DNA of 64,000 nucleotides from Bacteroidota bacterium. Lineage in GTDB: Bacteria > Bacteroidota > Bacteroidia > Bacteroidales > FEN-979. The first letter of the stretch is position 1; each line of letters begins with the position of its first letter. Positions 50,381 to 64,000 of this stretch are shown here, one piece after another. The notes beneath the pieces are model-generated. The model ran no database searches and was not told the DNA's origin. It saw only the letters and a program-made list of their open reading frames with translations. Location: positions 137,712-201,711 of the forward strand of contig JAPLDO010000078.1 of assembly GCA_026391715.1 (NCBI GenBank). Reading direction: 5' to 3'. Both the position numbers and the translations under genes were made by a program.

Positions 50381-51850
50381 ATGAAGGCCATTCCGTTGTT
50401 TTTCGTCTTCCTCCTTCTGACACAGTTGTCGTTTCCTCAAACCAATGATTCAAGAGACACTGCCAAGGCCAACTTCCGGGATTTTGAAAAATCCTGGAAT
50501 GATGGCTTTAATGATTACGCGGCGCAGCACGATTCTGACCTTTCCAAATATCTTCGAAATCACTGGGAAAAATACCAGATATTTATTGATTCAATAAGAT
50601 CAAAAAATAAACCCAAAAAACAACCGCGGTTTATCCCCGAAACGGGGAAGGTTGAATTTATTGATCCGGATAGCGCAATAGGCAAAGATGAACACAAATT
50701 CTACCAGATCTTTCAGGATTCAACCCCTGTAAAAAATGACATCAATTACTTTTCACCTGAGACTTCATTTGAATTCTATGGGGAAAAACCCGTCAACAAC
50801 TTTAAACAAACCGGTATAAAAGTCACGTCTGTCAATGAATCTTCAATAAAGGAATTTTTACGGAAATATTATTCTGATAAAACCTTGGAAAAAAACAAAA
50901 TTGAACTTATCCGGATTGCATGGGATTTGGGACTCAATGATTATGGATATTATCTGTTGCTCAGAAAAGCTGCAGTGCAGATGTTCGACAACCAAAACGA
51001 AAGGGCGCTCTTCACCTGGTTATACCTTCGGTCAATGAACAAGAGGAAGGTCATCCTCGGGTATGACAAAAATAATGCATACTGCCTGGCAGCCTGTGAT
51101 AAAAATTTGTTCAATCACCAATACGTCCTCATCGAAAAGGTGAAATATTATGTTTTTTTAGCTCCCGGGCAGCCAAAACCAACCGGTGACCTAAGTTACT
51201 ATGATTTGGAAAACTCAACAAAAACGGACCCGTTGACTCTTGAAATAGCCCGCTTCCCAAACCTGAACTACAGGACATCAACCCGGTTTTACCCATTTAA
51301 CCGGGACACCCTGCGCATCAATACAAATCTTTTTCTGATTGAATTCCTCCGCGATTTTCCCCAAACCAACCTGAAATATTATTTCGATGCGCCCGTCTCG
51401 GAAAAGACGTTGAGCGCCCTCGACCACGAAGTTAAACCACTGCTTAATGGCAAAACAGAAGTGGAAGAGGTCAATATCCTGTTGGCTTTTTTTCATAAAT
51501 CCTTCCGTTATAAAACAGATCAGGATCAGTTTGGGTCAGAAAAATATATGTTTTGTGATGAGGTTCTATTTTATCCTTATACCGACTGCGATGACAGGGC
51601 TGTGCTGTTTGCCCGGCTTGTTCAGCGGTACACGGGCTTGCCCGTGATCGGGCTCGATTATCCGAACCATGTATCCGTGGGCGTTTGCTTCTCCACTCCG
51701 GTTTCTGGCGATTCTGTCAAATTCGGGAAAAAAAATTATCTTATTTGTGATCCAACAATTATAAATGCCAAAGTTGGTAATGCCTCTGATTCCATGAACG
51801 CTGTTAAGCCTGTCGTAATCGAGGTAAACATTGATTCCATGAACAATTGA
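50381..51850 (+). CDS. secreted protein with C-terminal Cys-His-Asp (transglutaminase/papain-like) signature
   Basis: Has a signal peptide. YPYTDCDDRAVLFARLV ... YPNHVSVGV ... ICDPT parallels the 53479-56151 paralogue. Confidence 0.55.
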   Translation: MKAIPLFFVFLLLTQLSFPQTNDSRDTAKANFRDFEKSWNDGFNDYAAQHDSDLSKYLRNHWEKYQIFIDSIRSKNKPKKQPRFIPETGKVEFIDPDSAIGKDEHKFYQIFQDSTPVKNDINYFSPETSFEFYGEKPVNNFKQTGIKVTSVNESSIKEFLRKYYSDKTLEKNKIELIRIAWDLGLNDYGYYLLLRKAAVQMFDNQNERALFTWLYLRSMNKRKVILGYDKNNAYCLAACDKNLFNHQYVLIEKVKYYVFLAPGQPKPTGDLSYYDLENSTKTDPLTLEIARFPNLNYRTSTRFYPFNRDTLRINTNLFLIEFLRDFPQTNLKYYFDAPVSEKTLSALDHEVKPLLNGKTEVEEVNILLAFFHKSFRYKTDQDQFGSEKYMFCDEVLFYPYTDCDDRAVLFARLVQRYTGLPVIGLDYPNHVSVGVCFSTPVSGDSVKFGKKNYLICDPTIINAKVGNASDSMNAVKPVVIEVNIDSMNN

Positions 51851-53478: not shown

Positions 53479-56151
53479 ATGAAATCAACAGTGTTTCTCT
53501 GTTCTATTCTGCTATTGGCAGCAATGACAACCTTTGGACAAGTCAACAATGATTTTGAACAGGAAAAGAAAAAGCTCCAAAGCGAAATGAATGAATACAT
53601 CAGGCAGACCCGGAAAGAGTTTACCGATTACGTGGACGGGATCAACAAAGCCTATTCGGAATATCTTCGTAAAAACTGGAAAGAGTTCCCTGCTTTGCGT
53701 GCGATGGAACCCGACTCCATGCCGAAGCCGAAAATTCTGCCTGAATACAATCCAGCGATAGACAAAATTAAACCCGGAGAGGCAGTAAGGGTAATTCCCG
53801 TTCTGGTTCCGGATGCCATTCCACAAATAATACCGAAAATACCCAATATCCCGGTTATCCTCCCGGAGGAGGTCATTGAAGAAACACCGGCGCCTGACGA
53901 TAAAAAGCCACAGGATCCGCTGGAAGAAGCCACTAAACCCATCATCCGTGATAAACAGATATCTTTTTATGGCTCAGAACTATCCGTTGAGTTCGATCCC
54001 GCCATGAAAGGATCCCTTCCCGGGGAAATCCACAACACGACCATCGCCGGATTCTGGGACCGTATGAACAAGACCAATTATCCCCGTTTGATCAAACGGC
54101 TATCCGATTTGCGCACACAAATGAACCTGGGAGATTGGGGGTATTACCAACTGGTGAAAAAAACAGCCGAGTTCATCAATCCCGATGAGAATTATTCCCG
54201 GCTGCTCTCGTGGTTCCTGCTTACCAAATCGGGATATCGTATCCGCGTAGCATATACCGATAATCAAATTGCCCTTCTCTTCCCTTCAGCCAACAAGATT
54301 TACGGAATCCGCTATTTTTTGATCAGCAACGTGAAATACTACGCGCCGGGATTTACCCCCAGCCATATTTATACCTACGAACAAGACTTTCCCGGCGCCA
54401 CAAAAGCGCTTGACCTCAATGTTTACAATGCACTGAATATTGGAAATGACTACGTGATGAAGACGATCATTTTCAGTCATAATGACAAAAACTACTCGAT
54501 TGACGTAGAATACAATGCCAACAGCATTGATTTTTATAAAGATTTCCCTTTGTGCGAACTTAAGCTCTATCTGGATGCAGCGATAACGCCGCGCGCCAAA
54601 GAATCGCTGGTTCGCTCCTTGCAGCCGTTGGTTGAAGGGATGACAGAGGCAGAATCAGTAAACCTCCTTCTTTCGTTTGTCCAGAAAGGGTTTTCATACA
54701 AAACAGATCCTGAGCAGTTTGACGGGCATGAGAAGTTCAATTTCCCTGAAGAGACGCTTTTCTATCCCTATTCCGACTGCGACGACCGCGCCATTTTGTT
54801 CACATGGCTTGTCAGGGAATTGCTGGAACTGAAAGTTGTCGGTTTAGTTTATCCCGGGCATGTAGCCACTGCTGTTCACCTCAACGGGGATGAACCCGGA
54901 GATTTTGTAATGTATAAAGGAGAAAAATACATCGTCGCAGATCCAACTTACATCAATGCCCCAATGGGATTGACAATGCCGGGAATGAAAAATTCAGGCG
55001 CCGAAGTGGTCGAACCAACAATCTTTTACAATGAAAAAGAGATTCTGGCATCAATCTGGGAAAAGGTAGAAATAACAGGCGGGTTCAGAGGTGAAAATTT
55101 TCAGGACATTGACAGGGATTCAAGCGGGAATTACTATATTGCAGGGTATTTTAAGGGTGAACTCACCATCGGGGGAACTACATTGACCTCAAATCCATCA
55201 CAAAACGATGCCTTCATCGCAAGGTTCAACAAAAACGGGAACCCCGAATGGGCCATCAGTGGCGGATGTGAAGGAAATGCGAGGGCCGCGAACATCCGGC
55301 TGGATGATGAAAATAACATGTACATCACCGGCACCTTTGAAAAATCAATCAAATTCGGAGGCATTATGATGTTTGCCAATTCACCGGCCAACGCGTTTGT
55401 GGCCAAACTGAACCCGGATGGCAAACTCCTCTGGATGAACCAAACCGCCATCGACACGACCGATGCCAGGGACAACATCCATGTGCTTTCGCTGACCAGT
55501 TCCGGCAAAGTCATCAAATCAGACAAATACCCGCCCGATCCAAACTTCATGGCCTACGGGATAAGCTTTGATGAAAACAAGAATGTGTATTACACCGCCA
55601 CCTACGCCTATACTGCCGGTTTGATTGATAAGCTCACCATGTCGGCCGAGTCAATTTACAATGTTCCTGCCATTTTAAAAGAGGAGACCGATAAACAGAT
55701 TGAACTGAAATGCAACCAGTCCATCGCCGGCCTCTTCAGTGCCATATCGCTGCTGCGGAATGGAACTGTCGCCATCTCCGGTAAATCGGTACAGGCTGCA
55801 TTTGAAAAGTACAACCCCGACTTCAGGAAAAAATCGCCAAACCTTTACGCATCCATCGGGAAGATCAGTATGATGAAAAATGACCAGGGAATCATCACCA
55901 TCCTTACCGAAGACCAGAAACCCATCGGGCTCGACCGGATGAAAATCAACCACAACACCCGGTTGAAACTTTCGATGCTTCCCAACGGCGACGCGAGAAT
56001 TGATGTGTTGGGCGGCATCAAAGTGGGAAAAGCGATCATCTGGTACAGCTTAAATTTCATCAAGCTCTTCCGCACCAATGGTTCAATGCTGTTCGACTAC
56101 GATTCCGACCACAGCCAGGTGACACTTGACGTTCGTAAGGATTTGCTTTGA
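53479..56151 (+). CDS. large secreted protein: paralogue of 50381-51850 (Cys-His-Asp domain) plus C-terminal beta-propeller-like (SBBP-type) repeats
   Basis: Has a signal peptide and YPYSDCDDRAILFTWLV ... YPGHVATAV ... VADPTY. Repeats include NYYIAGYFKGELTIGG, NAFIARFNKNGNPEWA, NMYITGTFEKSIKFGG and NAFVAKLNPDGKLLWM. Confidence 0.6.
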   Translation: MKSTVFLCSILLLAAMTTFGQVNNDFEQEKKKLQSEMNEYIRQTRKEFTDYVDGINKAYSEYLRKNWKEFPALRAMEPDSMPKPKILPEYNPAIDKIKPGEAVRVIPVLVPDAIPQIIPKIPNIPVILPEEVIEETPAPDDKKPQDPLEEATKPIIRDKQISFYGSELSVEFDPAMKGSLPGEIHNTTIAGFWDRMNKTNYPRLIKRLSDLRTQMNLGDWGYYQLVKKTAEFINPDENYSRLLSWFLLTKSGYRIRVAYTDNQIALLFPSANKIYGIRYFLISNVKYYAPGFTPSHIYTYEQDFPGATKALDLNVYNALNIGNDYVMKTIIFSHNDKNYSIDVEYNANSIDFYKDFPLCELKLYLDAAITPRAKESLVRSLQPLVEGMTEAESVNLLLSFVQKGFSYKTDPEQFDGHEKFNFPEETLFYPYSDCDDRAILFTWLVRELLELKVVGLVYPGHVATAVHLNGDEPGDFVMYKGEKYIVADPTYINAPMGLTMPGMKNSGAEVVEPTIFYNEKEILASIWEKVEITGGFRGENFQDIDRDSSGNYYIAGYFKGELTIGGTTLTSNPSQNDAFIARFNKNGNPEWAISGGCEGNARAANIRLDDENNMYITGTFEKSIKFGGIMMFANSPANAFVAKLNPDGKLLWMNQTAIDTTDARDNIHVLSLTSSGKVIKSDKYPPDPNFMAYGISFDENKNVYYTATYAYTAGLIDKLTMSAESIYNVPAILKEETDKQIELKCNQSIAGLFSAISLLRNGTVAISGKSVQAAFEKYNPDFRKKSPNLYASIGKISMMKNDQGIITILTEDQKPIGLDRMKINHNTRLKLSMLPNGDARIDVLGGIKVGKAIIWYSLNFIKLFRTNGSMLFDYDSDHSQVTLDVRKDLL

Positions 56152-56184: not shown

Positions 56185-57795
56185 ATGAAAATTCAGCGAT
56201 CACACCACCGGTTTAAAGCCCGGACGCCCCTGCGGAACCCGGTAAACGATGCCAACGCGTTTGCAGCATCGTTGCGGGCAGTTGGTTTTACCGTGATCGT
56301 GAAGAACAACCTGAACAAGACGGAGATGGAAAACGCGGTGAGAAATTACTCGCAAAGGCTCACCGCCGGCGATGTCGCGCTGTTCTATTACAGCGGCCAC
56401 AGGATGCAGGTAAAGGGCGTCAATTACCTGGTGCCGGTGGGCGAAAGCATCTATTCGGAGGTTGATATTCCATACAAGAGCATGGAGGCACAATTTGTGA
56501 TTGACTACATGCAGGAGGCAAAAACCTCTGTGAACATCATCATCCTTGATGCCTGCCGCGACAACCCGTTCAAATCCTTCCGATCCCTGAGCCGCGGGTT
56601 TGTGCCGGTAATCGCCCCCCAGGGCACTTTCATCGCCTATTCCACCGCCCCCGGAACGGTAGCCTTCGATGGCGCCGGCAGCCACTCACCTTACACCGAA
56701 AACCTGATCGCCTCCATGAAAAAACCGGGGATGCCCATCGAGGAGATGTTCAAAGAGGTGAGGCGGAACGTGATGAACGAAACTTCGAAGATGCAGGTGC
56801 CGTGGGAATCCTCGTCATTGATTGATGCCTTCGCGTTCAATGGGGTTGTAAATTCAAAGATTGTAATTCCCGAATCAACACCGCCCATCGTCAATAAACC
56901 ACTTGCTAAGACTGCAAATTTGCATAAGGATTGTAATAGACTTATTTATATGGCCGATAGATCCTTAAGCGATAAAGAATACTTCAATGCACGAGAAAAC
57001 TATCAAAAAGCGTCACTCATTGAACCTGGAGAGTCCTATCCAAAAGATAAAATCCGGGAAATAGATATATTGCTGGCTAAGAACTTAGATTTATTTACTA
57101 CTATGGTATTTGTGGAGGGCGGAACTTTTCAAATGGGCAGCAACGATGGTTATGACAATGAAAAACCGGTACATTCGGTAACGCTCAATAATTTTTATAT
57201 CGGCAAAACCGAAGTGACCCAGAAACAATGGAGGGAGGTGATGGGCAGCGATCCGCCGGAGTTAAATAACAAAGGTTGCGATCAATGTCCGGTAGAGGGT
57301 GTTTCATGGATTGATGTACAGGATTTCATCACGAAACTGAACCGGAAAACCAATAAAACTTATCGCCTGCCCACCGAAGCAGAATGGGAATATGCCGCAA
57401 GGGGCGGAAACAAAAGCAGGGGATACGCGTATAGCGGAAGCACCAACGTTGGCGATGTGGCATGGTATTCAGAAAATTCCGGTTTAATAACCCACCCGGT
57501 CGGGCAAAAAGAGCCAAATGAACTCGGGATTTACGACATGACCGGAAACGTTTGGGAATGGTGCAGAGATTGGTATGGTGCCTATGAATATGACTGGAAC
57601 AGTACGATTTCCAACCCTCAGGGCCCTTCATCGGGCTCCGACCATGTGTTTCGCGGTGGCGGTTGGGGCATCGGCCCTCAGTACTGCCGCACTTCGTATC
57701 GCAACGGCGCTGCCCCCGACTATCGCAGCTACTATCTGGGGTTTCGTTTTTTTTTTCCCATAGTTCGGGGGCGGCTGTTTGGCCATTCCTTTTGA
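56185..57795 (+). CDS. caspase-like (peptidase C14) - FGE-sulfatase/C-type-lectin-fold fusion protein, putative DGR target A
   Basis: Caspase motifs are NPVNDA, YYSGHRMQ (His) and ILDACRDNPF (Cys). FGE-type motifs are RLPTEAEWEYAARGG, GNVWEWC, RGGGW and LGFR. There is no signal peptide and the first caspase strand appears to be missing. Confidence 0.8.
   Translation: MKIQRSHHRFKARTPLRNPVNDANAFAASLRAVGFTVIVKNNLNKTEMENAVRNYSQRLTAGDVALFYYSGHRMQVKGVNYLVPVGESIYSEVDIPYKSMEAQFVIDYMQEAKTSVNIIILDACRDNPFKSFRSLSRGFVPVIAPQGTFIAYSTAPGTVAFDGAGSHSPYTENLIASMKKPGMPIEEMFKEVRRNVMNETSKMQVPWESSSLIDAFAFNGVVNSKIVIPESTPPIVNKPLAKTANLHKDCNRLIYMADRSLSDKEYFNARENYQKASLIEPGESYPKDKIREIDILLAKNLDLFTTMVFVEGGTFQMGSNDGYDNEKPVHSVTLNNFYIGKTEVTQKQWREVMGSDPPELNNKGCDQCPVEGVSWIDVQDFITKLNRKTNKTYRLPTEAEWEYAARGGNKSRGYAYSGSTNVGDVAWYSENSGLITHPVGQKEPNELGIYDMTGNVWEWCRDWYGAYEYDWNSTISNPQGPSSGSDHVFRGGGWGIGPQYCRTSYRNGAAPDYRSYYLGFRFFFPIVRGRLFGHSF
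57610..57760 (+). repeat. putative DGR variable region, copy A
   Basis: Aligns with 61215-61364 and 63251-63400. Blocks such as GGCCCTTCATCGGGCTCCGACC and CGCGGTGGCGGTTGG are invariant, and substitutions are confined to particular codons. Confidence 0.6.
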
Positions 57796-57855
57796 GCCAG
57801 GACATTCAAAATTCCTAACTTCGCTGATGAAAAACATTTAAAACAGCAAATTGAA

Positions 57856-59100
57856 ATGACTAAAATAAAAATAAAGAATTTCGGGCCCGTCAAAGAGGGA
57901 TATCAGGACAATGACGGCTGGCTTGATGTGAAAAAGGTTACCCTGTTTATCGGTAATCAGGGAAGTGGTAAAAGCGCCGTGGCAAAACTTATCACAACTT
58001 TTATGTGGATAGAGAAAGTCCTTACAAGGGGCGACTACGACAGGAAAAGTTTTTCAAAAGTTTTTGCCATGAAGGACCAGGGGAAAAACCAGTTTCTCAC
58101 ATACTTCCGGTTGGAAAATTATTTTCCGACCGACCGCACCAGAACTTTGATTGAATACAAAGGCGAATCATTCAACATTACACTTGAAAACGGACAACTA
58201 CATATTGAAGCTGCGAAAAATGGCGACTACCCGCTGCCACAAATCATGTATGTTCCGGCCGAAAGAAATTTTATTGCAAATGTGAGAACCCCGAAAGCGC
58301 TGAAACTGATTTCGCCTTCCTTGTCGGAATTTGTGACCGAGTTTGACAATTCCAGGGATGAAATTAGAGAGCCGATGCTTTTGCCAATCAATGATGCCTT
58401 TGTTGAGTATAACAAGTTGAACGATGTTGTTTATATCAAAGGGAATGATTACAGGATTAAGTTGACCGAGTCATCAAGCGGTTTTCAGTCATTGGTCCCA
58501 TTGTTTTTGGTTTCATGGTTTCTTTCCAATTCAGTTAAGCGACAAAGCGACAACACGAAAGAATTGATGACAAGTGAACAAAGGGAACGATTTCGCAAAC
58601 GGTTTCAGGCAATAAATGAAAACCTTGATTTAACCGAAGAACAAAAACGGATTGCAATTTCTTCACTTGCAAAAGAATTTACCAAAACTGCTTTCATCAA
58701 TGTCGTAGAAGAACCGGAACAAAATCTGTTTCCAGGTTCGCAACATGGGGTGTTGAACCGGTTGATCGAATTCAACAACATGAATAGCGGGAACAAATTA
58801 ATAATGACCACCCACAGCCCATACCTGGTTAATTATCTGACTTTGGCAGTAAAGGCAAATGATTTGAACGGAATGATCAAAACGGAGGCGCTTAGAACAC
58901 GGTTAAATGAAATTGTTCCCCTCCAATCAACAACAAGCGCCGACGAGCTTGCAATTTACGAAATGAACGAAAAGGATGGGACGATAGTAAAGTTGGCCAA
59001 CTACAAAGGGTTACCTGATGACGACAATTATTTGAATGAAAAGCTGGCAGAATGCAACGAACTATTTGCAAAACTATTGGAAATTCAGCAAGAAATATGA
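57856..59100 (+). CDS. ABC-type (AAA_15/AAA_21-like) ATPase
   Basis: Has N-terminal IKNFGPV, Walker A (GNQGSGKS), Q-loop (YVPAERN), signature-like SSSGFQS, Walker B (FINVVEEPEQNLFP) and H-loop (MTTHSP). Confidence 0.8.
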   Translation: MTKIKIKNFGPVKEGYQDNDGWLDVKKVTLFIGNQGSGKSAVAKLITTFMWIEKVLTRGDYDRKSFSKVFAMKDQGKNQFLTYFRLENYFPTDRTRTLIEYKGESFNITLENGQLHIEAAKNGDYPLPQIMYVPAERNFIANVRTPKALKLISPSLSEFVTEFDNSRDEIREPMLLPINDAFVEYNKLNDVVYIKGNDYRIKLTESSSGFQSLVPLFLVSWFLSNSVKRQSDNTKELMTSEQRERFRKRFQAINENLDLTEEQKRIAISSLAKEFTKTAFINVVEEPEQNLFPGSQHGVLNRLIEFNNMNSGNKLIMTTHSPYLVNYLTLAVKANDLNGMIKTEALRTRLNEIVPLQSTTSADELAIYEMNEKDGTIVKLANYKGLPDDDNYLNEKLAECNELFAKLLEIQQEI

Positions 59101-59597
59101 GTGTGGATTTTTCTAAAGCGGAGTGTCAGGACAACTCTAAAAAACATTTATTCGGGCTTTGTGATGACCGACCCGGACAACGGGCATATTTAGATGAAGT
59201 AGATGGCGGTAAATGGATTGCTGTTGTGGTAAACGATTACAGATACGAAACAACTTTCACCGCTGTTGACCATTGCATAGATTTGCAAAGAGATGATGGC
59301 AATTTGGCAAAAAGATGCGATGGCTTTTTATCTTACAATTCAACAGTAATTTTTGTTGAACTGAAAGAAAGAGGCGCAATGAATAATGCCTGGGTAACTG
59401 ATGGAGAAAAACAGTTGAGAAGTTCACTTGATTTTTTTAAGGCTGACAGCTACTCAAAAAGGTTCACAGCGAAAAAAGCATACATCGCAAACAGTGAACA
59501 TCCAAGGTTCAAAGTAAGTCAACTCAGACGAATGGAACAATTTCTGGACGACACGGGTTTTGTGCTGCGAATTGAAAACAGAATCATCCTCCAATAA
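59097..59597 (+). CDS. small partner protein with PD-(D/E)xK-like motif
   Basis: Its start overlaps the ATPase stop (ATGA at 59097-59100). CDGFLSYNSTVIFVELKERG fits D-x(n)-E-x-K. No other recognisable domain. Confidence 0.45.
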   Translation: MSVDFSKAECQDNSKKHLFGLCDDRPGQRAYLDEVDGGKWIAVVVNDYRYETTFTAVDHCIDLQRDDGNLAKRCDGFLSYNSTVIFVELKERGAMNNAWVTDGEKQLRSSLDFFKADSYSKRFTAKKAYIANSEHPRFKVSQLRRMEQFLDDTGFVLRIENRIILQ

Positions 59598-59612
59598 TGA
59601 AAGAATACCGAC

Positions 59613-61364
59613 ATGAAGACAAAACTACATTTTTTCATTTTATGTGCCATTTCCATTTTTTACGCTTCGGTGGTCTCCGCCCAGGAGCGCGGCATGCAGC
59701 CTGTCATTTTGAAAATTGACGGCAAAACCACCACGCTCTACCGGCAAAGTTACGCGCTGGTTATCGGGGTGAGCAAATACACAAGCGGATGGCCATCCCT
59801 TCCTGGCGTTGAAAGCGATGTAACGGCAGTGGTATCGGCGCTGGAGAAAAACGGGTTTAATGTTACAAAGGTCCTTAACCCTCAGACCAGGGCCGATCTG
59901 GAAACTGCCATTGAAAATTTTATCAACAGGCACGGGCAGGACACCAACAGCCGTTTGCTCTTTTATTTCGCCTTGCACGGTCACACCATCAAAATGTCAT
60001 ACGGGGAGAGCCTGGGCTACCTTTGTCCCGCCAACGCGCCAGACCCGAATACCAACAAGGCAGATTTTATAACAAAAGCTTTGCCCATGGAAGCTTTTGA
60101 TTTGTTCGCCAAAAAAATAAACTCGAAACATGCCCTGTTTTTGTTCGACGCCTGTTTTGCCGGGCAGGTCTTTTCCGCTACCCGCGCCGCGCCCGAGATA
60201 ATCCAATACAAAACCAGGTTGCCGGTGAGGCAGTTCATCACCAGCGGCGATGCCGATGAAACCGTTCCAGATGTGAGTATTTTCAGGCGGGTTTTTGTTC
60301 AGGCGTTAGAGGGGTATGCCGAAAAAGGCGGCGATGGTTACCTCACCGGCTCCGAACTGGGTGAATATCTTCAGGAACAGGTGGTCAACCTTTCGAATGG
60401 AACCCAGCACCCGCAGTATGGCAAGATCAGGAACATTTATTTAAACAAAGGCGATTTCGTGTTCGTGGTGAAACAAAACACGGCAAAGCCACCGGATGAA
60501 ATCATCATCGAACCGGAAAAACCAAGGATAGCTGACGCTTCGTTTATCCCCGCAGTGGTTTCCATTCCCGGCGGTACTTTCCTTATGGGCAGCAATGATG
60601 GGGAAGATGATGAAAAGCCGGTGCACCGGGTTACGGTAAGTGGTTTTTCGATGGGGAAATACGAAGTAACAGTTTCGCAGTTTAAGAAGTTTATTGACGA
60701 AACAGGCCACCGTACCGATGCCGATAAAGATGGCGGCAGTTACATGTGGACAGGCAGCGAGTGGGAAAAACGCGCCGGGGTAACCTGGAGGTGCGACGCG
60801 GAAGGGAACGCCCGCCCGCAAAACGAATATGACCACCCGGTGATCCACGTAAGCTGGAACGATGCCGTTGAATATTGCAGGTGGTTGAGCGGCAAGACCG
60901 GAAACACCTACCGTTTGCCAACCGAAGCCGAGTGGGAATATGCCGCTGGAAACGGCGCGAAACACACCAGGTACAGTTGGGGCAACGGGGAGCCATGGGG
61001 TAAAAATGGCGGGAACGTAGCCGATGAAGCGGCAAAAAGAAAATTTTCCGGTTGGACCATCTTTTCCGGTTATGACGACGGTTACGTGTTTACTTCGCCT
61101 GTTGGAACCTATAATCCAAACGAATTCGGACTTTACGACATGACCGGCAACGTTTGGGAGTGGTGCAGCGACTGGTATGGCGCGCAATATTACCAGGGCA
61201 GCCCGGCTTCCAACCCTGAAGGCCCTTCATCGGGCTCCGACCGTGTGTTTCGCGGTGGCGGTTGGCTCATCTACCCTCAGTACTGCCGCACTTCGTATCG
61301 CAGCGACCGCACCCCCGGCTACCGCAACTACTATTTGGGGTTTCGTTTGGTTTTTGTCCCATAG
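59613..61364 (+). CDS. secreted caspase-like (C14) - FGE-sulfatase/C-type-lectin-fold fusion protein, putative DGR target B
   Basis: Has a signal peptide ending VVSAQE and caspase motifs YALVIGVSKY, LHGH and LFDACFAG. FGE-type motifs are RLPTEAEWEYAAGNG, GNVWEWC, RGGGW and LGFRLVFVP. Confidence 0.85.
   Translation: MKTKLHFFILCAISIFYASVVSAQERGMQPVILKIDGKTTTLYRQSYALVIGVSKYTSGWPSLPGVESDVTAVVSALEKNGFNVTKVLNPQTRADLETAIENFINRHGQDTNSRLLFYFALHGHTIKMSYGESLGYLCPANAPDPNTNKADFITKALPMEAFDLFAKKINSKHALFLFDACFAGQVFSATRAAPEIIQYKTRLPVRQFITSGDADETVPDVSIFRRVFVQALEGYAEKGGDGYLTGSELGEYLQEQVVNLSNGTQHPQYGKIRNIYLNKGDFVFVVKQNTAKPPDEIIIEPEKPRIADASFIPAVVSIPGGTFLMGSNDGEDDEKPVHRVTVSGFSMGKYEVTVSQFKKFIDETGHRTDADKDGGSYMWTGSEWEKRAGVTWRCDAEGNARPQNEYDHPVIHVSWNDAVEYCRWLSGKTGNTYRLPTEAEWEYAAGNGAKHTRYSWGNGEPWGKNGGNVADEAAKRKFSGWTIFSGYDDGYVFTSPVGTYNPNEFGLYDMTGNVWEWCSDWYGAQYYQGSPASNPEGPSSGSDRVFRGGGWLIYPQYCRTSYRSDRTPGYRNYYLGFRLVFVP
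61170..61364 (+). repeat. putative DGR variable region, copy B
   Basis: Collinear with 63206-63400. Roughly two dozen substitutions fall in about 20 codons, nearly all at codon positions 1-2. The last 29 nt including the stop are identical. Confidence 0.65.
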
Positions 61365-61520
61365 TTTGGGGGAGGCTATTTTGCCATACCTTTTGAGCTA
61401 AGAAGAGACGAGTTTTGCAAGGAGGGAGGGAGGGACGACCGACCGACAAGGCAAAACGAGGAATTAACAATACCGCCCATGGCGGTCGAAATTTTTTTGA
61501 AAATGCAGCTAAAATTATTT
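61365..61520 (+). repeat. conserved 3' element after target B (IMH-like GC block, G-rich tract, hairpin, relic of HRDC gene start)
   Basis: Near-identical to 63401-63560. It contains GGAGGGAGGGAGGGACGACCGACCGAC (61421-61447) and the hairpin ACCGCC-CAT-GGCGGT (61472-61486). It ends with ATGCAGCTAAAATTATTTGCC, which resembles the HRDC ORF start. Confidence 0.75.
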
Positions 61521-61588
61521 GCCCGGATGTCACAAAGCAATCTTTTCGTCCACTTATTATTACCTTTAGTGCGATAAATTGCCACGTT

Positions 61589-63400
61589 ATGAAAACAGCC
61601 CTCCTCCTTGTCCTGCCTTTTTCCATTTTCATTTTTCACTTTTCACTTGTCTCAGCCCAGGAACGCGGCATGCAGCAGGTAAAGGTGAACATCGCCAACA
61701 AACCGGTTGTCCTTTATCAGAAAAGCTATGCCCTGCTGATTGGCGTAAGCGATTATTCCAATGGATTGAAAAAACTCCCTGGCGTAAAAGAGGACATTGA
61801 GGCAGTGAAAGATCAACTGGAAAAGTTCGGTTTCCTGGTGACGGTGGTCATGAACCCCGATAATACCGGGTTGACCAATGCGTTTAACAATTTCATCGCC
61901 AATTACGGGCAGGAGAAGGAGAGCCGTTTGGTTTTTTATTTTGCCGGGCATGGATATACAAGGAACATATACGGCAATGAGATAGGCTATCTGCTGCCTG
62001 TAAATTGCCCGAATCCGGAACTCAACCCATCCGGATTCCAGTCGAATGCCATGCCAATGGGTCAGATCGAACTCTTTGCCCAGCAGGTAGGGTCGAAGCA
62101 TGCCCTTTTTCTTTTTGACGCCTGTTTTTCGGGCGCTGTTTTTGCGCCGTCAAGGGATATTCCGGGGATCATATCATATAAAACTGAACTGCCTGTGCGC
62201 CAGTTCATCACCAGCGGCAGCGCCGACGAAACAGTGCCCGATCAAAGTATATTCCGCAGGCAGTTGTTGGCTGGCTTGCAGGGCGAAGCCGATTTAAACC
62301 ACGACCAATACATCACCGGTACCGAACTGGGGGATTATCTTCAAACAACCGTAGTAAATTATTCCCGCTCTTCATTGCATCCACAGGTAGGAAAAATCCG
62401 CGACCCGAAACTCGACGATGGCGATTTTGTGTTCGTGGTGAAAAATAACACGGCAAAGCCACCGGATGACATCATCATCGAACCGGCAAAAACATGGGTG
62501 CAATACGGCAAACTGGAACTCATGACCGAAATTGCGGGATCCCTTTACATTGACGGCGAAAACAAACAAACGCTCAATGCAAACACCATAAATACTTTTG
62601 GAAATCTTCCGGCAGGTTCGCACACCATTAAAATAGAAGGCGAAGAAACAGTTGAAAAGGAGGTTACCATAACTGCCAATGAAACGGCTAATTTAACCAT
62701 GAAAAAGAGGCCGCGGCAAGCTGCATCAACAGATAATGAAATGGTATTTGTGGAAGGCGGAACCTTTCAAATGGGCAGCAACGATGGGGATAGCGATGAA
62801 AAACCGGTACATTCGGTAACGCTCAATAATTTTTATATCGGCAAGACCGAAGTGACCCAAAAACAATGGAGGGAAGTGATGGGCAGTGATCCGCCGGATT
62901 TAAAAAACAAAGGTTGCGATCAATGTCCGGTGGAGAGTGTTTCATGGAATGATGTACAGGATTTCATCGCAAAACTGAACCGGAAAACCAATAAAACTTA
63001 TCGCCTGCCCACCGAAGCCGAATGGGAATATGCCGCAAGGGGCGGGAACAAAAGCAGGGGATACGCGTATAGCGGAAGCGCCAACGTTGGCGATGTTGCA
63101 TGGTATTCAGAAAATTCCGGTTCAAAAATCCACCCGGTCGCGCAAAAACAACCCAATGAACTGGGGCTGTACGACATGAGCGGCAACGTTTGGGAATGGT
63201 GCAGCGACTGGTATGTCGCGCAATATTACCAGAACAGCCCGGCTTCCAACCCCCAAGGCCCTTCATCGGGCTCCGACCGTGTGCTTCGCGGTGGCGGTTG
63301 GGACTACGACCCTCGGAACTGCCGCTCTTCGTTTCGCGGCAACGACCCCCCCGCCGACCGCGGCGACGATTTGGGGTTTCGTTTGGTTTTTGTCCCATAG
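61589..63400 (+). CDS. secreted caspase-like (C14) - PEGA-like - FGE-sulfatase/C-type-lectin-fold fusion protein, putative DGR target C
   Basis: A signal peptide starts at the ATG at 61589 (MKTALLLVLPFSIFIFHFSLVSAQE). Caspase motifs are YALLIGVSDY, AGHGY and LFDACFSG. A middle domain carries LPAGSHTIKIEGEE, and the FGE-type C-terminus is about 93-95 percent identical by eye to target A. Confidence 0.85.
   Translation: MKTALLLVLPFSIFIFHFSLVSAQERGMQQVKVNIANKPVVLYQKSYALLIGVSDYSNGLKKLPGVKEDIEAVKDQLEKFGFLVTVVMNPDNTGLTNAFNNFIANYGQEKESRLVFYFAGHGYTRNIYGNEIGYLLPVNCPNPELNPSGFQSNAMPMGQIELFAQQVGSKHALFLFDACFSGAVFAPSRDIPGIISYKTELPVRQFITSGSADETVPDQSIFRRQLLAGLQGEADLNHDQYITGTELGDYLQTTVVNYSRSSLHPQVGKIRDPKLDDGDFVFVVKNNTAKPPDDIIIEPAKTWVQYGKLELMTEIAGSLYIDGENKQTLNANTINTFGNLPAGSHTIKIEGEETVEKEVTITANETANLTMKKRPRQAASTDNEMVFVEGGTFQMGSNDGDSDEKPVHSVTLNNFYIGKTEVTQKQWREVMGSDPPDLKNKGCDQCPVESVSWNDVQDFIAKLNRKTNKTYRLPTEAEWEYAARGGNKSRGYAYSGSANVGDVAWYSENSGSKIHPVAQKQPNELGLYDMSGNVWEWCSDWYVAQYYQNSPASNPQGPSSGSDRVLRGGGWDYDPRNCRSSFRGNDPPADRGDDLGFRLVFVP
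63206..63400 (+). repeat. putative DGR variable region, copy C
   Basis: See copies A and B. The variable codons read GAC TAC GAC ... AAC ... GGC AAC GAC ... GCC GAC ... GGC GAC GAT. Confidence 0.65.
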
Positions 63401-63538
63401 TTCGGGGGCGGCTGTTTGGCCATGCCTTTTGAGCTAAGAAGAAACGAGTTTTGCAAGGAGGGAGGGAGGGACGACCGACCGACAAGGCAAAACGAGGAAT
63501 TAACAATACCGCCTGTGGCGGTCGAAAAAATTTTTGAA
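63401..63538 (+). promoter_or_regulatory. conserved 3' element after target C (IMH-like GC block, G-rich tract, hairpin)
   Basis: TTCGGGGGCGGCTGTTTGGCC follows the stop directly. The G-rich tract is at 63457-63483 and the hairpin ACCGCC-TGT-GGCGGT at 63508-63522. The stems are identical in copies B and C while the loops differ. Confidence 0.55.
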
Positions 63539-64000
63539 ATGCAACTGAAATTGTTCACCATCCCTGTAACCGACACAGGGGCTTTTACAGAAGAACTCAA
63601 CAGGTTTTTGCGCGCCAATAAAATACTGGAAGTCGAAAATCATTTGATAAGCAATGAACACGGGGCATCCTGGTGTTTTTGCGTAAAATATATCGAATCG
63701 GGCTGGACACCCCACCCCGGCGACCGGCCAAAAACAGATTATAAAACCGAGTTGGACGCGGAAACTTTTGAAGTGTTTTCAAAACTCAGGGAGGCTCGTA
63801 AACAGTTGGCTTTGGAGGATGCCGTTCCCGCATACGCTATCTGTACCGACCAGGAGATGGCTTTAATTGCCAAACTAAAAGAGTTGACCCTTGAAAATTT
63901 ACTTACCGTGAAAGGTTTTGGGGATAAAAAACTTGAAAAATACGGAAACCGGCTAATCCTTATAGTTAAACAAAAAACACAAGATGAAAAGGGCAGGGAA
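63539..64000 (+). CDS. HRDC-domain protein, N-terminal part (frame open to right window edge); candidate DGR accessory gene
   Basis: The frame runs uninterrupted from the ATG at 63539 to the window end. FEVFSKLREARKQLALEDAVPAYAICTDQEMALIAKL...VKGFGDKKLEKYG fits the HRDC consensus. It is absent from the ORF track because no stop is reached. Confidence 0.75.
   Translation, partial: MQLKLFTIPVTDTGAFTEELNRFLRANKILEVENHLISNEHGASWCFCVKYIESGWTPHPGDRPKTDYKTELDAETFEVFSKLREARKQLALEDAVPAYAICTDQEMALIAKLKELTLENLLTVKGFGDKKLEKYGNRLILIVKQKTQDEKGRE

Follow-up and report, generated by a model that had tools for sequence, protein, structure and literature searches.

Several anti-phage systems are built from an ABC-type ATPase and a separate effector, and ATPases of the AAA15/21 kind occur with many different effectors. 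In PARIS, the AriA scaffold sequesters AriB and releases it upon ATP-dependent detection of viral proteins, and in HEC-02, which was validated by Payne et al. (10.1101/2024.01.29.577857), an ABC ATPase is accompanied by a NERD protein, both genes being required for defence. The same study derived 145 "phage defence candidates" (PDCs) from genes located inside BREX, DISARM and type I restriction-modification (RM) systems, which were described as untested and added to PADLOC. The 64,000-nt stretch of a Bacteroidota bacterium genome analysed here (contig JAPLDO010000078.1; 64 kb, hereafter the window, in whose coordinates all positions are given) carries a gene pair consisting of an ABC-type ATPase gene (gene A) and a gene coding for a small protein (gene B), which belongs to one of these candidates, PDC-M29, that is, multi-gene candidate no. 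29 (Payne et al., bioRxiv 10.1101/2024.01.29.577857). The initial annotation of the locus had likened its layout to that of anti-phage systems combining an ABC ATPase with an effector, and the comparison with PARIS, HEC-02 and Septu bears this out. The features of the pair are as follows:

57856–59100, + strand: gene A, coding for a 414-aa ABC-type (AAA_15/AAA_21) ATPase that matches PDC-M29A

59097–59597, + strand: gene B, coding for a 166-aa protein that matches PDC-M29B and is a predicted divergent PD-(D/E)xK-fold nuclease

59097–59100, + strand: ATGA start/stop overlap, read from the sequence, in which the ATG of gene B overlaps the TGA of gene A

Both open reading frames (ORFs) and the overlap are as first described, and the 4-nt overlap implies translational coupling of the two genes. 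A 181-aa reading of gene B starting at 59052 was ruled out by family length and N-terminal conservation, since more than 360 homologues are 165–168 aa long and all of them start at a conserved Met-Ser. A protein 100% identical to the gene A product is deposited at NCBI as "MAG: AAA family ATPase [Bacteroidetes bacterium]" on a 228,691-bp contig, and a database look-up found no record of the exact gene B protein.

Searched against PADLOC-DB v2, both genes match the PDC-M29 profiles over their full length. Gene A matches PDC-M29A with an E-value of 7.9e-175 and 580 bits (residues 1–413 against profile positions 1–409 of 410), and gene B matches PDC-M29B (PDLC04563) with an E-value of 2.1e-60 (residues 1–165 against positions 1–163 of 164), as well as a second PDC-M29B model, PDLC04564, with an E-value of 4.9e-29. 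The genes are adjacent, lie on the same strand and follow each other in the A-then-B order. The pair is a member of PDC-M29, which is already catalogued, and its type is not new; the initial statement that it could not be placed in any named system did not hold. Whether it would prove to be a known system had also been asked, to which the answer is that PDC-M29 has a catalogue entry, though only as a candidate system. In the supplement of Payne et al. the cassette is listed as CAS_00123 (FAM_00005>>FAM_02872, number 110) with the remark "Assign as candidate PDC-M29", and the ATPase family FAM_00005 also appears there with other partner families, one such pairing having been folded into HEC-01. 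The text and the supplementary files examined contain no functional annotation of the PDC-M29 B component, and the nuclease prediction for it originates in the present analysis.

The gene A product was first read as a 414-aa ATPase with a full set of ABC/SMC-like motifs, and all the motifs quoted were found: Walker A at residues 33–40, the Q-loop with Q129, the signature at 206–212, Walker B and the D-loop at 283–293 and the H-loop at 317–322. Within them, G33–S40, Q129, S207–S212, E285–P293 and T318–P322 are invariant across 18 homologues with 62–87% identity (alignment A5). The protein matches Pfam AAA_15 with 56.6 bits (cutoff 32.1, E = 4.5e-15) and AAA_21 with 32.3 bits (cutoff 27, E = 1.4e-07) and is, judging by its motifs, a competent ABC ATPase of the short type, without a long coiled coil. 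Outside PDC-M29, its best PADLOC matches are all partial and all belong to defence ATPases, namely AriA from PARIS (E = 9e-20), PDC-M56A and NsnB, with further partial matches to HEC-01A, HEC-02A, PtuA and GajA. For the AlphaFold model of gene A, Foldseek ranked PtuA from the retron Ec83 PtuAB complex first in the PDB (E = 1.5e-4), with SMC heads next, which would be consistent with the profile matches, although the structural analogy to PtuA and AriA is only indicative because the model is poor (pLDDT 60.8), the 18-sequence alignment being too shallow. The PDB profile search with the gene A family gave no usable match.

Across 68 homologues, the least conserved segments of the gene A product are residues 61–120 and 226–270 (about 58036–58215 and about 58531–58665 in the window), which extend from the Walker A helix to the Q-loop and from the signature motif to Walker B, respectively, these being the insert positions of ABC ATPases. 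The C-terminal segment 376–405 is well conserved. The variable inserts could form a trigger-sensing surface and residues 376–405 a surface binding the gene B product.

Gene B is part of a sizeable family, whose members are stand-alone proteins about 165 aa long and which comprises 494 clusters at 50% identity with E ≤ 1e-3. The protein has no match to any Pfam, NCBIfam or PHROG family. It contains the motif C74-D75-G-F-L followed, after seven residues, by F-V-E88-L-K90, giving the signature D75-x12-E88-x-K90; the motif was originally quoted as CDGFL-x8-FVELK, and while it is real and conserved, the spacer is one of seven residues and not eight. An acidic residue with (D/E)xK 10–30 residues further on constitutes the PD-(D/E)xK signature, and gene B has both. 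In an alignment of 88 diverse homologues with a mean column identity of 31%, N46, D58, E88 and Q106 are invariant, with D75 conserved in 97% and K90 in 99% of the sequences; these six are the candidate active-site residues. Four cysteines are conserved as well: C74 (99%), C60 (95%), C10 (84%) and C22 (81%). The initial description of an ABC ATPase coupled to a small protein with a PD-(D/E)xK-type signature is therefore upheld, the signature being conserved in the family.

The AlphaFold2 model of the gene B product has a pLDDT of 96 and a pTM of 0.91. D75 is located just before the strand 76–80, E88-x-K90 lie in the strand 83–90, the long helix 95–116 carries Q106, and there is a further strand 125–132, so that the modelled order of secondary-structure elements around the motif is the order of the PD-(D/E)xK core, with a small N-terminal β unit in place of the usual first helix of that core. 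The top PDB match in Foldseek is the small subunit of R.BspD6I, a weak one (E = 0.19, probability 0.72, TM 0.38), and the top 50 also include weak matches to N.BspD6I, EcoT38I, arenavirus cap-snatching endonucleases, Can2 and Hjc. PD-(D/E)xK nucleases make up about a third of these 50 matches, all of which were used solely as weak, enrichment-type evidence. A Pfam scan of the 88 family members at a lax threshold gave sub-threshold matches to NERD in nine of them, to SduA_C (Shedu nuclease) in five, the best E-value being 8e-4, and to NucS_C in three, in addition to Hjc and AHJR-like; the recurrent matches belong mostly to PD-(D/E)xK families. It is quite probable that the gene B product is a divergent nuclease of the PD-(D/E)xK fold. 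A far more tentative idea is that, with a four-cysteine site and no close PDB neighbour, it might found a structurally distinct subfamily.

The two genes of the pair are tightly linked in other genomes. The genome scan for gene B was performed with the closer alignment (A1) and resulted in 80 gene B-encoding loci with up to 10 kb of flanking sequence. They come from Bacteroidota (including Chitinophaga, Algoriphagus, Flavobacterium and Pedobacter), Ignavibacteria, which include the closest one (76% identity), and Cyanobacteria, represented by Microcystis, Anabaena/Dolichospermum and Aphanizomenon. Gene A is present in 79 of the 80 loci, in 77 of them directly upstream of gene B and on the same strand, and the sole locus without it extends just 84 nt upstream. 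Of the 69 loci where gene B aligns from residue 1, 60 retain the ATGA overlap, and in pairwise comparisons the identity of A correlates with that of B (r = 0.67). This characterises PDC-M29 as a two-gene module that is tightly coupled and widely distributed across three phyla.

In two genomes, one from Flavobacteriales (L031, 6069–13480) and one from Lentimicrobiaceae (L082, 6099–13473), the pair lies within a type I RM operon with the gene order hsdM-hsdS-A-B-hsdR, all on one strand and with spacers of 3–50 nt. This placement between hsdS and hsdR independently reproduces the kind of embedding that was used to define PDC-M29. Among the 132 nearest neighbours of the pair (two genes on each side, from 33 loci), the defence genes comprise type I RM components, mad2-like methylases, AbiEi and Mrr_cat. 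The neighbours vary between genomes: in an Ignavibacteria metagenome-assembled genome they include DUF2130 and a UvrD-like helicase, whereas those in Chitinophaga include AbiEii, an HTH protein and an acetyltransferase. Some copies of the pair have decayed: in one locus (L076, 6017–10381) gene A and an N-terminally truncated gene B are about 2.7 kb apart, possibly due to an insertion; in another (L044, 9831–10501) only the last 57 or so residues of A are left; and in a third (L045, 4796–6527) gene B appears split.

Of the described systems, HEC-02 has a similar composition, with two genes coding for an ABC ATPase and a separate small protein of the PD-(D/E)xK superfamily (NERD). Gene A weakly matches HEC-02A (E = 1.8e-9, residues 2–73), and the sub-threshold NERD matches in 9 of the 88 relatives of gene B point in the same direction. 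The ATPases, however, match in the P-loop region only, and gene B has no HEC-02B match at E ≤ 1 and stays below the Pfam NERD threshold, so the pair does not belong to HEC-02. The NERD partner of HEC-02, being a PD-(D/E)xK family, also contradicts the earlier assertion that systems combining an ABC ATPase with a nuclease use HNH or TOPRIM partners. With PARIS the pair shares an ABC ATPase of the AAA_15/21 type and a separate nuclease effector, and AriA is the best non-self PADLOC match of gene A. This match covers only residues 82–325 of gene A, and the PARIS effector is the TOPRIM/DUF4435 protein AriB in contrast to the PD-(D/E)xK-like gene B product, which has no AriB or TOPRIM match at E ≤ 1; moreover, PARIS is often found on phages and satellites, whereas the pair is absent from the phage collection. 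It is not a PARIS system. Septu and the retron-associated PtuAB likewise consist of two genes, for an ABC ATPase and a small nuclease, and PtuA from Ec83 is the best structural neighbour of the low-confidence gene A model. PtuB, however, is an HNH nuclease, while gene B has no PtuB or HNH match, and gene A scores 28.4 bits against NCBIfam PtuA (cutoff 500) and matches PADLOC PtuA over about 45 residues, which places the pair outside Septu. Finally, in the two genomes with the embedded copies the pair holds a site between hsdS and hsdR like that of PrrC in EcoprrI, which suggests a back-up role when restriction is inhibited (cf. the discussion in Payne et al.). PrrC differs in being one polypeptide with a C-terminal anticodon nuclease domain, as the effector of the pair is a separate protein of a different fold, and in most genomes, including the window, the pair adjoins no RM system.

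The reading we prefer, to which we assign a probability of about 0.6, is that the pair is a PDC-M29 cassette in which a sensor ATPase controls a divergent PD-(D/E)xK nuclease in phage defence. The proposed mechanism is based on analogies with PARIS, where a nuclease is sequestered and released, and with HEC-02, where both genes are required; from these we infer a complex of A and B, a nuclease activity with its substrate, a trigger and a defence phenotype. ATPase A would act as the sensor or regulator, probably forming a complex with B and keeping it inactive. An infection cue would then be detected, which in PARIS is a phage protein such as an anti-restriction protein, and this detection, ATP-dependent in PARIS, would release or activate B. 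The freed B would cleave nucleic acid and thereby halt the phage, for which the host cell would probably pay a price. More speculatively, the embedding in type I RM systems suggests that anti-restriction proteins are the trigger.

A number of observations weigh against this reading. The assignment of the gene B fold rests on the order of residues along the secondary structure of the model and not on their spatial clustering. The modelling and Foldseek check proposed for the small protein yielded a confident model and weak matches enriched in nucleases, yet none of them is significant: there is no match with E ≤ 1e-3 in the PDB or among viral structures, the best viral match having an E-value of 0.039, and the PDB profile search with the gene B family returned nothing. 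The model of gene A is itself of low confidence. No pair was found in 50,697 phage records and only one distant match in plasmid records, so the pair shows little mobile-element signal. Most of the 132 nearest neighbours are ordinary housekeeping genes, and no other PADLOC system was detected in the neighbouring genes of the window, which speaks against the defence hotspot initially envisaged. The searchable literature contains neither an experiment on PDC-M29 nor a mention of it. A study of eight other PADLOC candidates did not include PDC-M29 (PMC12881386), but four of the eight defended, a record that favours the preferred reading.

Other explanations were also considered. Gene B might not code for a nuclease at all, the D...ExK pattern being coincidental or belonging to a ligand-binding, metal-binding or adaptor protein, with the ATPase or an unlinked host factor as the effector. 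The lack of a significant fold or profile match and the position of gene B outside every Pfam, NCBIfam and PHROG family agree with that, and C10, C22, C60 and C74 could form a structural or regulatory metal site instead of a catalytic one. What makes this improbable is that the conserved residues are right both in chemistry and in order (D75-x12-E88-x-K90 with Q106 in the next helix) and occupy, in a very confident model, the secondary-structure elements where they are expected; besides, the weak matches are non-random, with PD-(D/E)xK nucleases accounting for about a third of the top 50 in the PDB and for the commonest sub-threshold Pfam families (NERD, SduA_C, NucS_C, Hjc and AHJR-like). It could also be supposed that the pair has no dedicated anti-phage role and is either a selfish addiction module of the toxin-antitoxin (TA) type or an ATPase–nuclease pair for repair or recombination, similar to SMC, RecF or SbcC. 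Pfam describes AAA_21 as a "putative AbiEii toxin, Type IV TA system" domain, the gene A model also resembles the heads of SMC, Rad50 and UvrA, the genomic neighbours are mostly housekeeping genes, the decayed copies in three loci (L044, L045 and L076) are what is expected of dispensable selfish modules, and no test of PDC-M29 in phage defence was found in the searchable literature. Still, the closest profile matches of gene A outside its own family all belong to defence ATPases, with AriA (9e-20) as the best, and the protein, at only 414 aa, has no long coiled coil such as SMC, Rad50 and SbcC possess. Two genomes have the pair between hsdS and hsdR, others have AbiE, Mrr or methylase genes next to it, and its patchy spread over Bacteroidota, Ignavibacteria and Cyanobacteria is the pattern of accessory defence and not of core repair, which leaves a selfish or repair function rather unlikely.

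Beyond what a PADLOC run on the contig would give, the finding adds little. It does present PDC-M29 as a coupled and widespread two-gene module of about 500 clusters at 50% identity, provides the "hypothetical" B component with a testable assignment as a divergent PD-(D/E)xK protein with named residues, and records the type I RM embedding again, independently of the original study. The general reading of the pair as a defence candidate made of an ABC ATPase and a PD-(D/E)xK-like effector stands. If PDC-M29 is validated, it will join HEC-02 as the second defence type combining an ABC ATPase with a PD-(D/E)xK protein, and phage–host studies of environmental Bacteroidota and bloom-forming cyanobacteria (Microcystis, Dolichospermum) will have one more defence system to consider.

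In the window, the pair is located between paralogous caspase-FGE genes which resemble targets of a diversity-generating retroelement (DGR). The features of this array are:

56185–57795, + strand: caspase-FGE target A, whose variable 3′ region (about 170 nt) and conserved post-stop element are shared with targets B and C

57796–57855, + strand: 60-nt spacer between the stop of target A and the start of gene A (from alignment A2 and the terminator scan)

59598–59612, + strand: 15-nt spacer between the stop of gene B and the start of target B

59613–61364, + strand: caspase-FGE target B, with the shared variable 3′ region and post-stop element

about 61592–63400: caspase-FGE target C, likewise with the shared variable 3′ region and post-stop element

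61472–61486 and 63508–63522: post-stop hairpins after targets B and C, respectively (ACCGCC-N3-GGCGGT followed by a T-run)

The pair was said to begin where target A loses its 3′ homology to targets B and C and to look like an inserted cassette, and both points are supported. Target A can be aligned to the element that follows the stop of B and C as far as about 57802, some 50 nt before the ATG of gene A at 57856 (alignment A2), whereas after targets B and C this element runs on for about 150 nt and includes the terminator-like hairpin. The pair sits in place of the downstream element, which is compatible with an insertion or a rearrangement. In the search for an empty insertion site, an exact-match scan of metagenomes for the element following the variable region (VR) found nothing, and a scan with the caspase-FGE protein gave distant relatives only, with at most 43% identity over the full length. 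The GC content of genes A and B (0.404 and 0.395) is lower than that of the flanking caspase-FGE genes (0.49–0.52), as had been pointed out, but it is normal for the window (0.435 as a whole), lying within one standard deviation of the mean of the 29 other ORFs (0.442, sd 0.042). Composition was dropped as a sign of horizontal transfer and is no marker of foreign origin here, because the GC-rich outliers are the flanking caspase-FGE genes. A scan for sigma-70 promoters upstream of gene A, which excludes Bacteroidota promoters, gave matches no commoner than in shuffled sequence.

The position of the pair had also raised the question of a functional link to the hypervariable sensor-protease array, with the pair serving as a downstream effector of the sensor-proteases or as a DGR accessory. 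Its genes do lie between two same-strand caspase-FGE paralogues, at distances of only 60 nt and 15 nt, and the terminator scan found neither a terminator-like site in the 15-nt spacer before target B nor, in the 60-nt spacer before gene A, the terminator-like hairpin that follows targets B and C. Co-transcription with the targets is possible since no such site separates target A, the pair and target B. The arrangement of A, B and target B with an identical gene A protein recurs in three other samples, on short contigs (L085–L087) from SRR20698650, ERR15302178 and ERR15302190. Other genomes do not repeat this association: no caspase-FGE gene was found within 10 kb of gene B in the 80 loci, two of which have FGE-only matches, kilobases away and on the opposite strand, and neither gene A nor gene B is encoded in 80 caspase-FGE loci with a total length of 528 kb. 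The neighbourhood survey proposed at the outset revealed type I RM embedding in two genomes and no co-location with caspase-FGE genes. The pair behaves as a self-contained module in very different contexts across three phyla, and the window contains no DGR reverse transcriptase or template repeat, with the three VR-like copies being the only ones. A functional tie of the pair to the array is extremely unlikely on these grounds, and it is very unlikely, too, that the pair was captured into a co-transcribed, DGR-diversified caspase-FGE operon where hypervariable sensor-proteases of the surface or periplasm and the ATPase–nuclease act as one immune unit. That the PDC-M29 cassette lies between the caspase-FGE genes is best explained by an incidental insertion or rearrangement that took place in this lineage.

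Two of the three short contigs (L085 and L086) end about 100 nt upstream of gene A, at the repeated 3′ element of the targets, which suggests assembly breaks induced by the repeat. The non-coding elements at 61365–61591 (after target B) and 63401–63544 (after target C) are repeats of each other, and the one after target B retains a vestige of the opening codons (MQLKLF...) of the HRDC-like ORF located downstream, which implies that a target was duplicated in tandem along with the sequence that follows it. This ORF (63545–64000) follows target C, runs off the end of the window and codes for an HRDC-like C-terminal region matching the C-terminus of DpdF (E = 2e-13); it could plausibly serve as a DGR accessory gene. 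Next to B and C, target A appears degenerate, as it is devoid of the signal peptide and the N-terminal region, its Peptidase_C14 domain starting from residue 8 at profile position 10, and a 2-nt deletion near 57748 shifts its stop and results in a different C-terminal tail. Upstream of the array, the ORFs 50381–51850 and 53479–56151 belong to no Pfam family, the second one coding for an 890-aa protein with a sub-threshold match to a β-propeller repeat. They share a 66-nt segment ("...YPYSDCDDRA...") with 71% DNA identity and may be paralogues.

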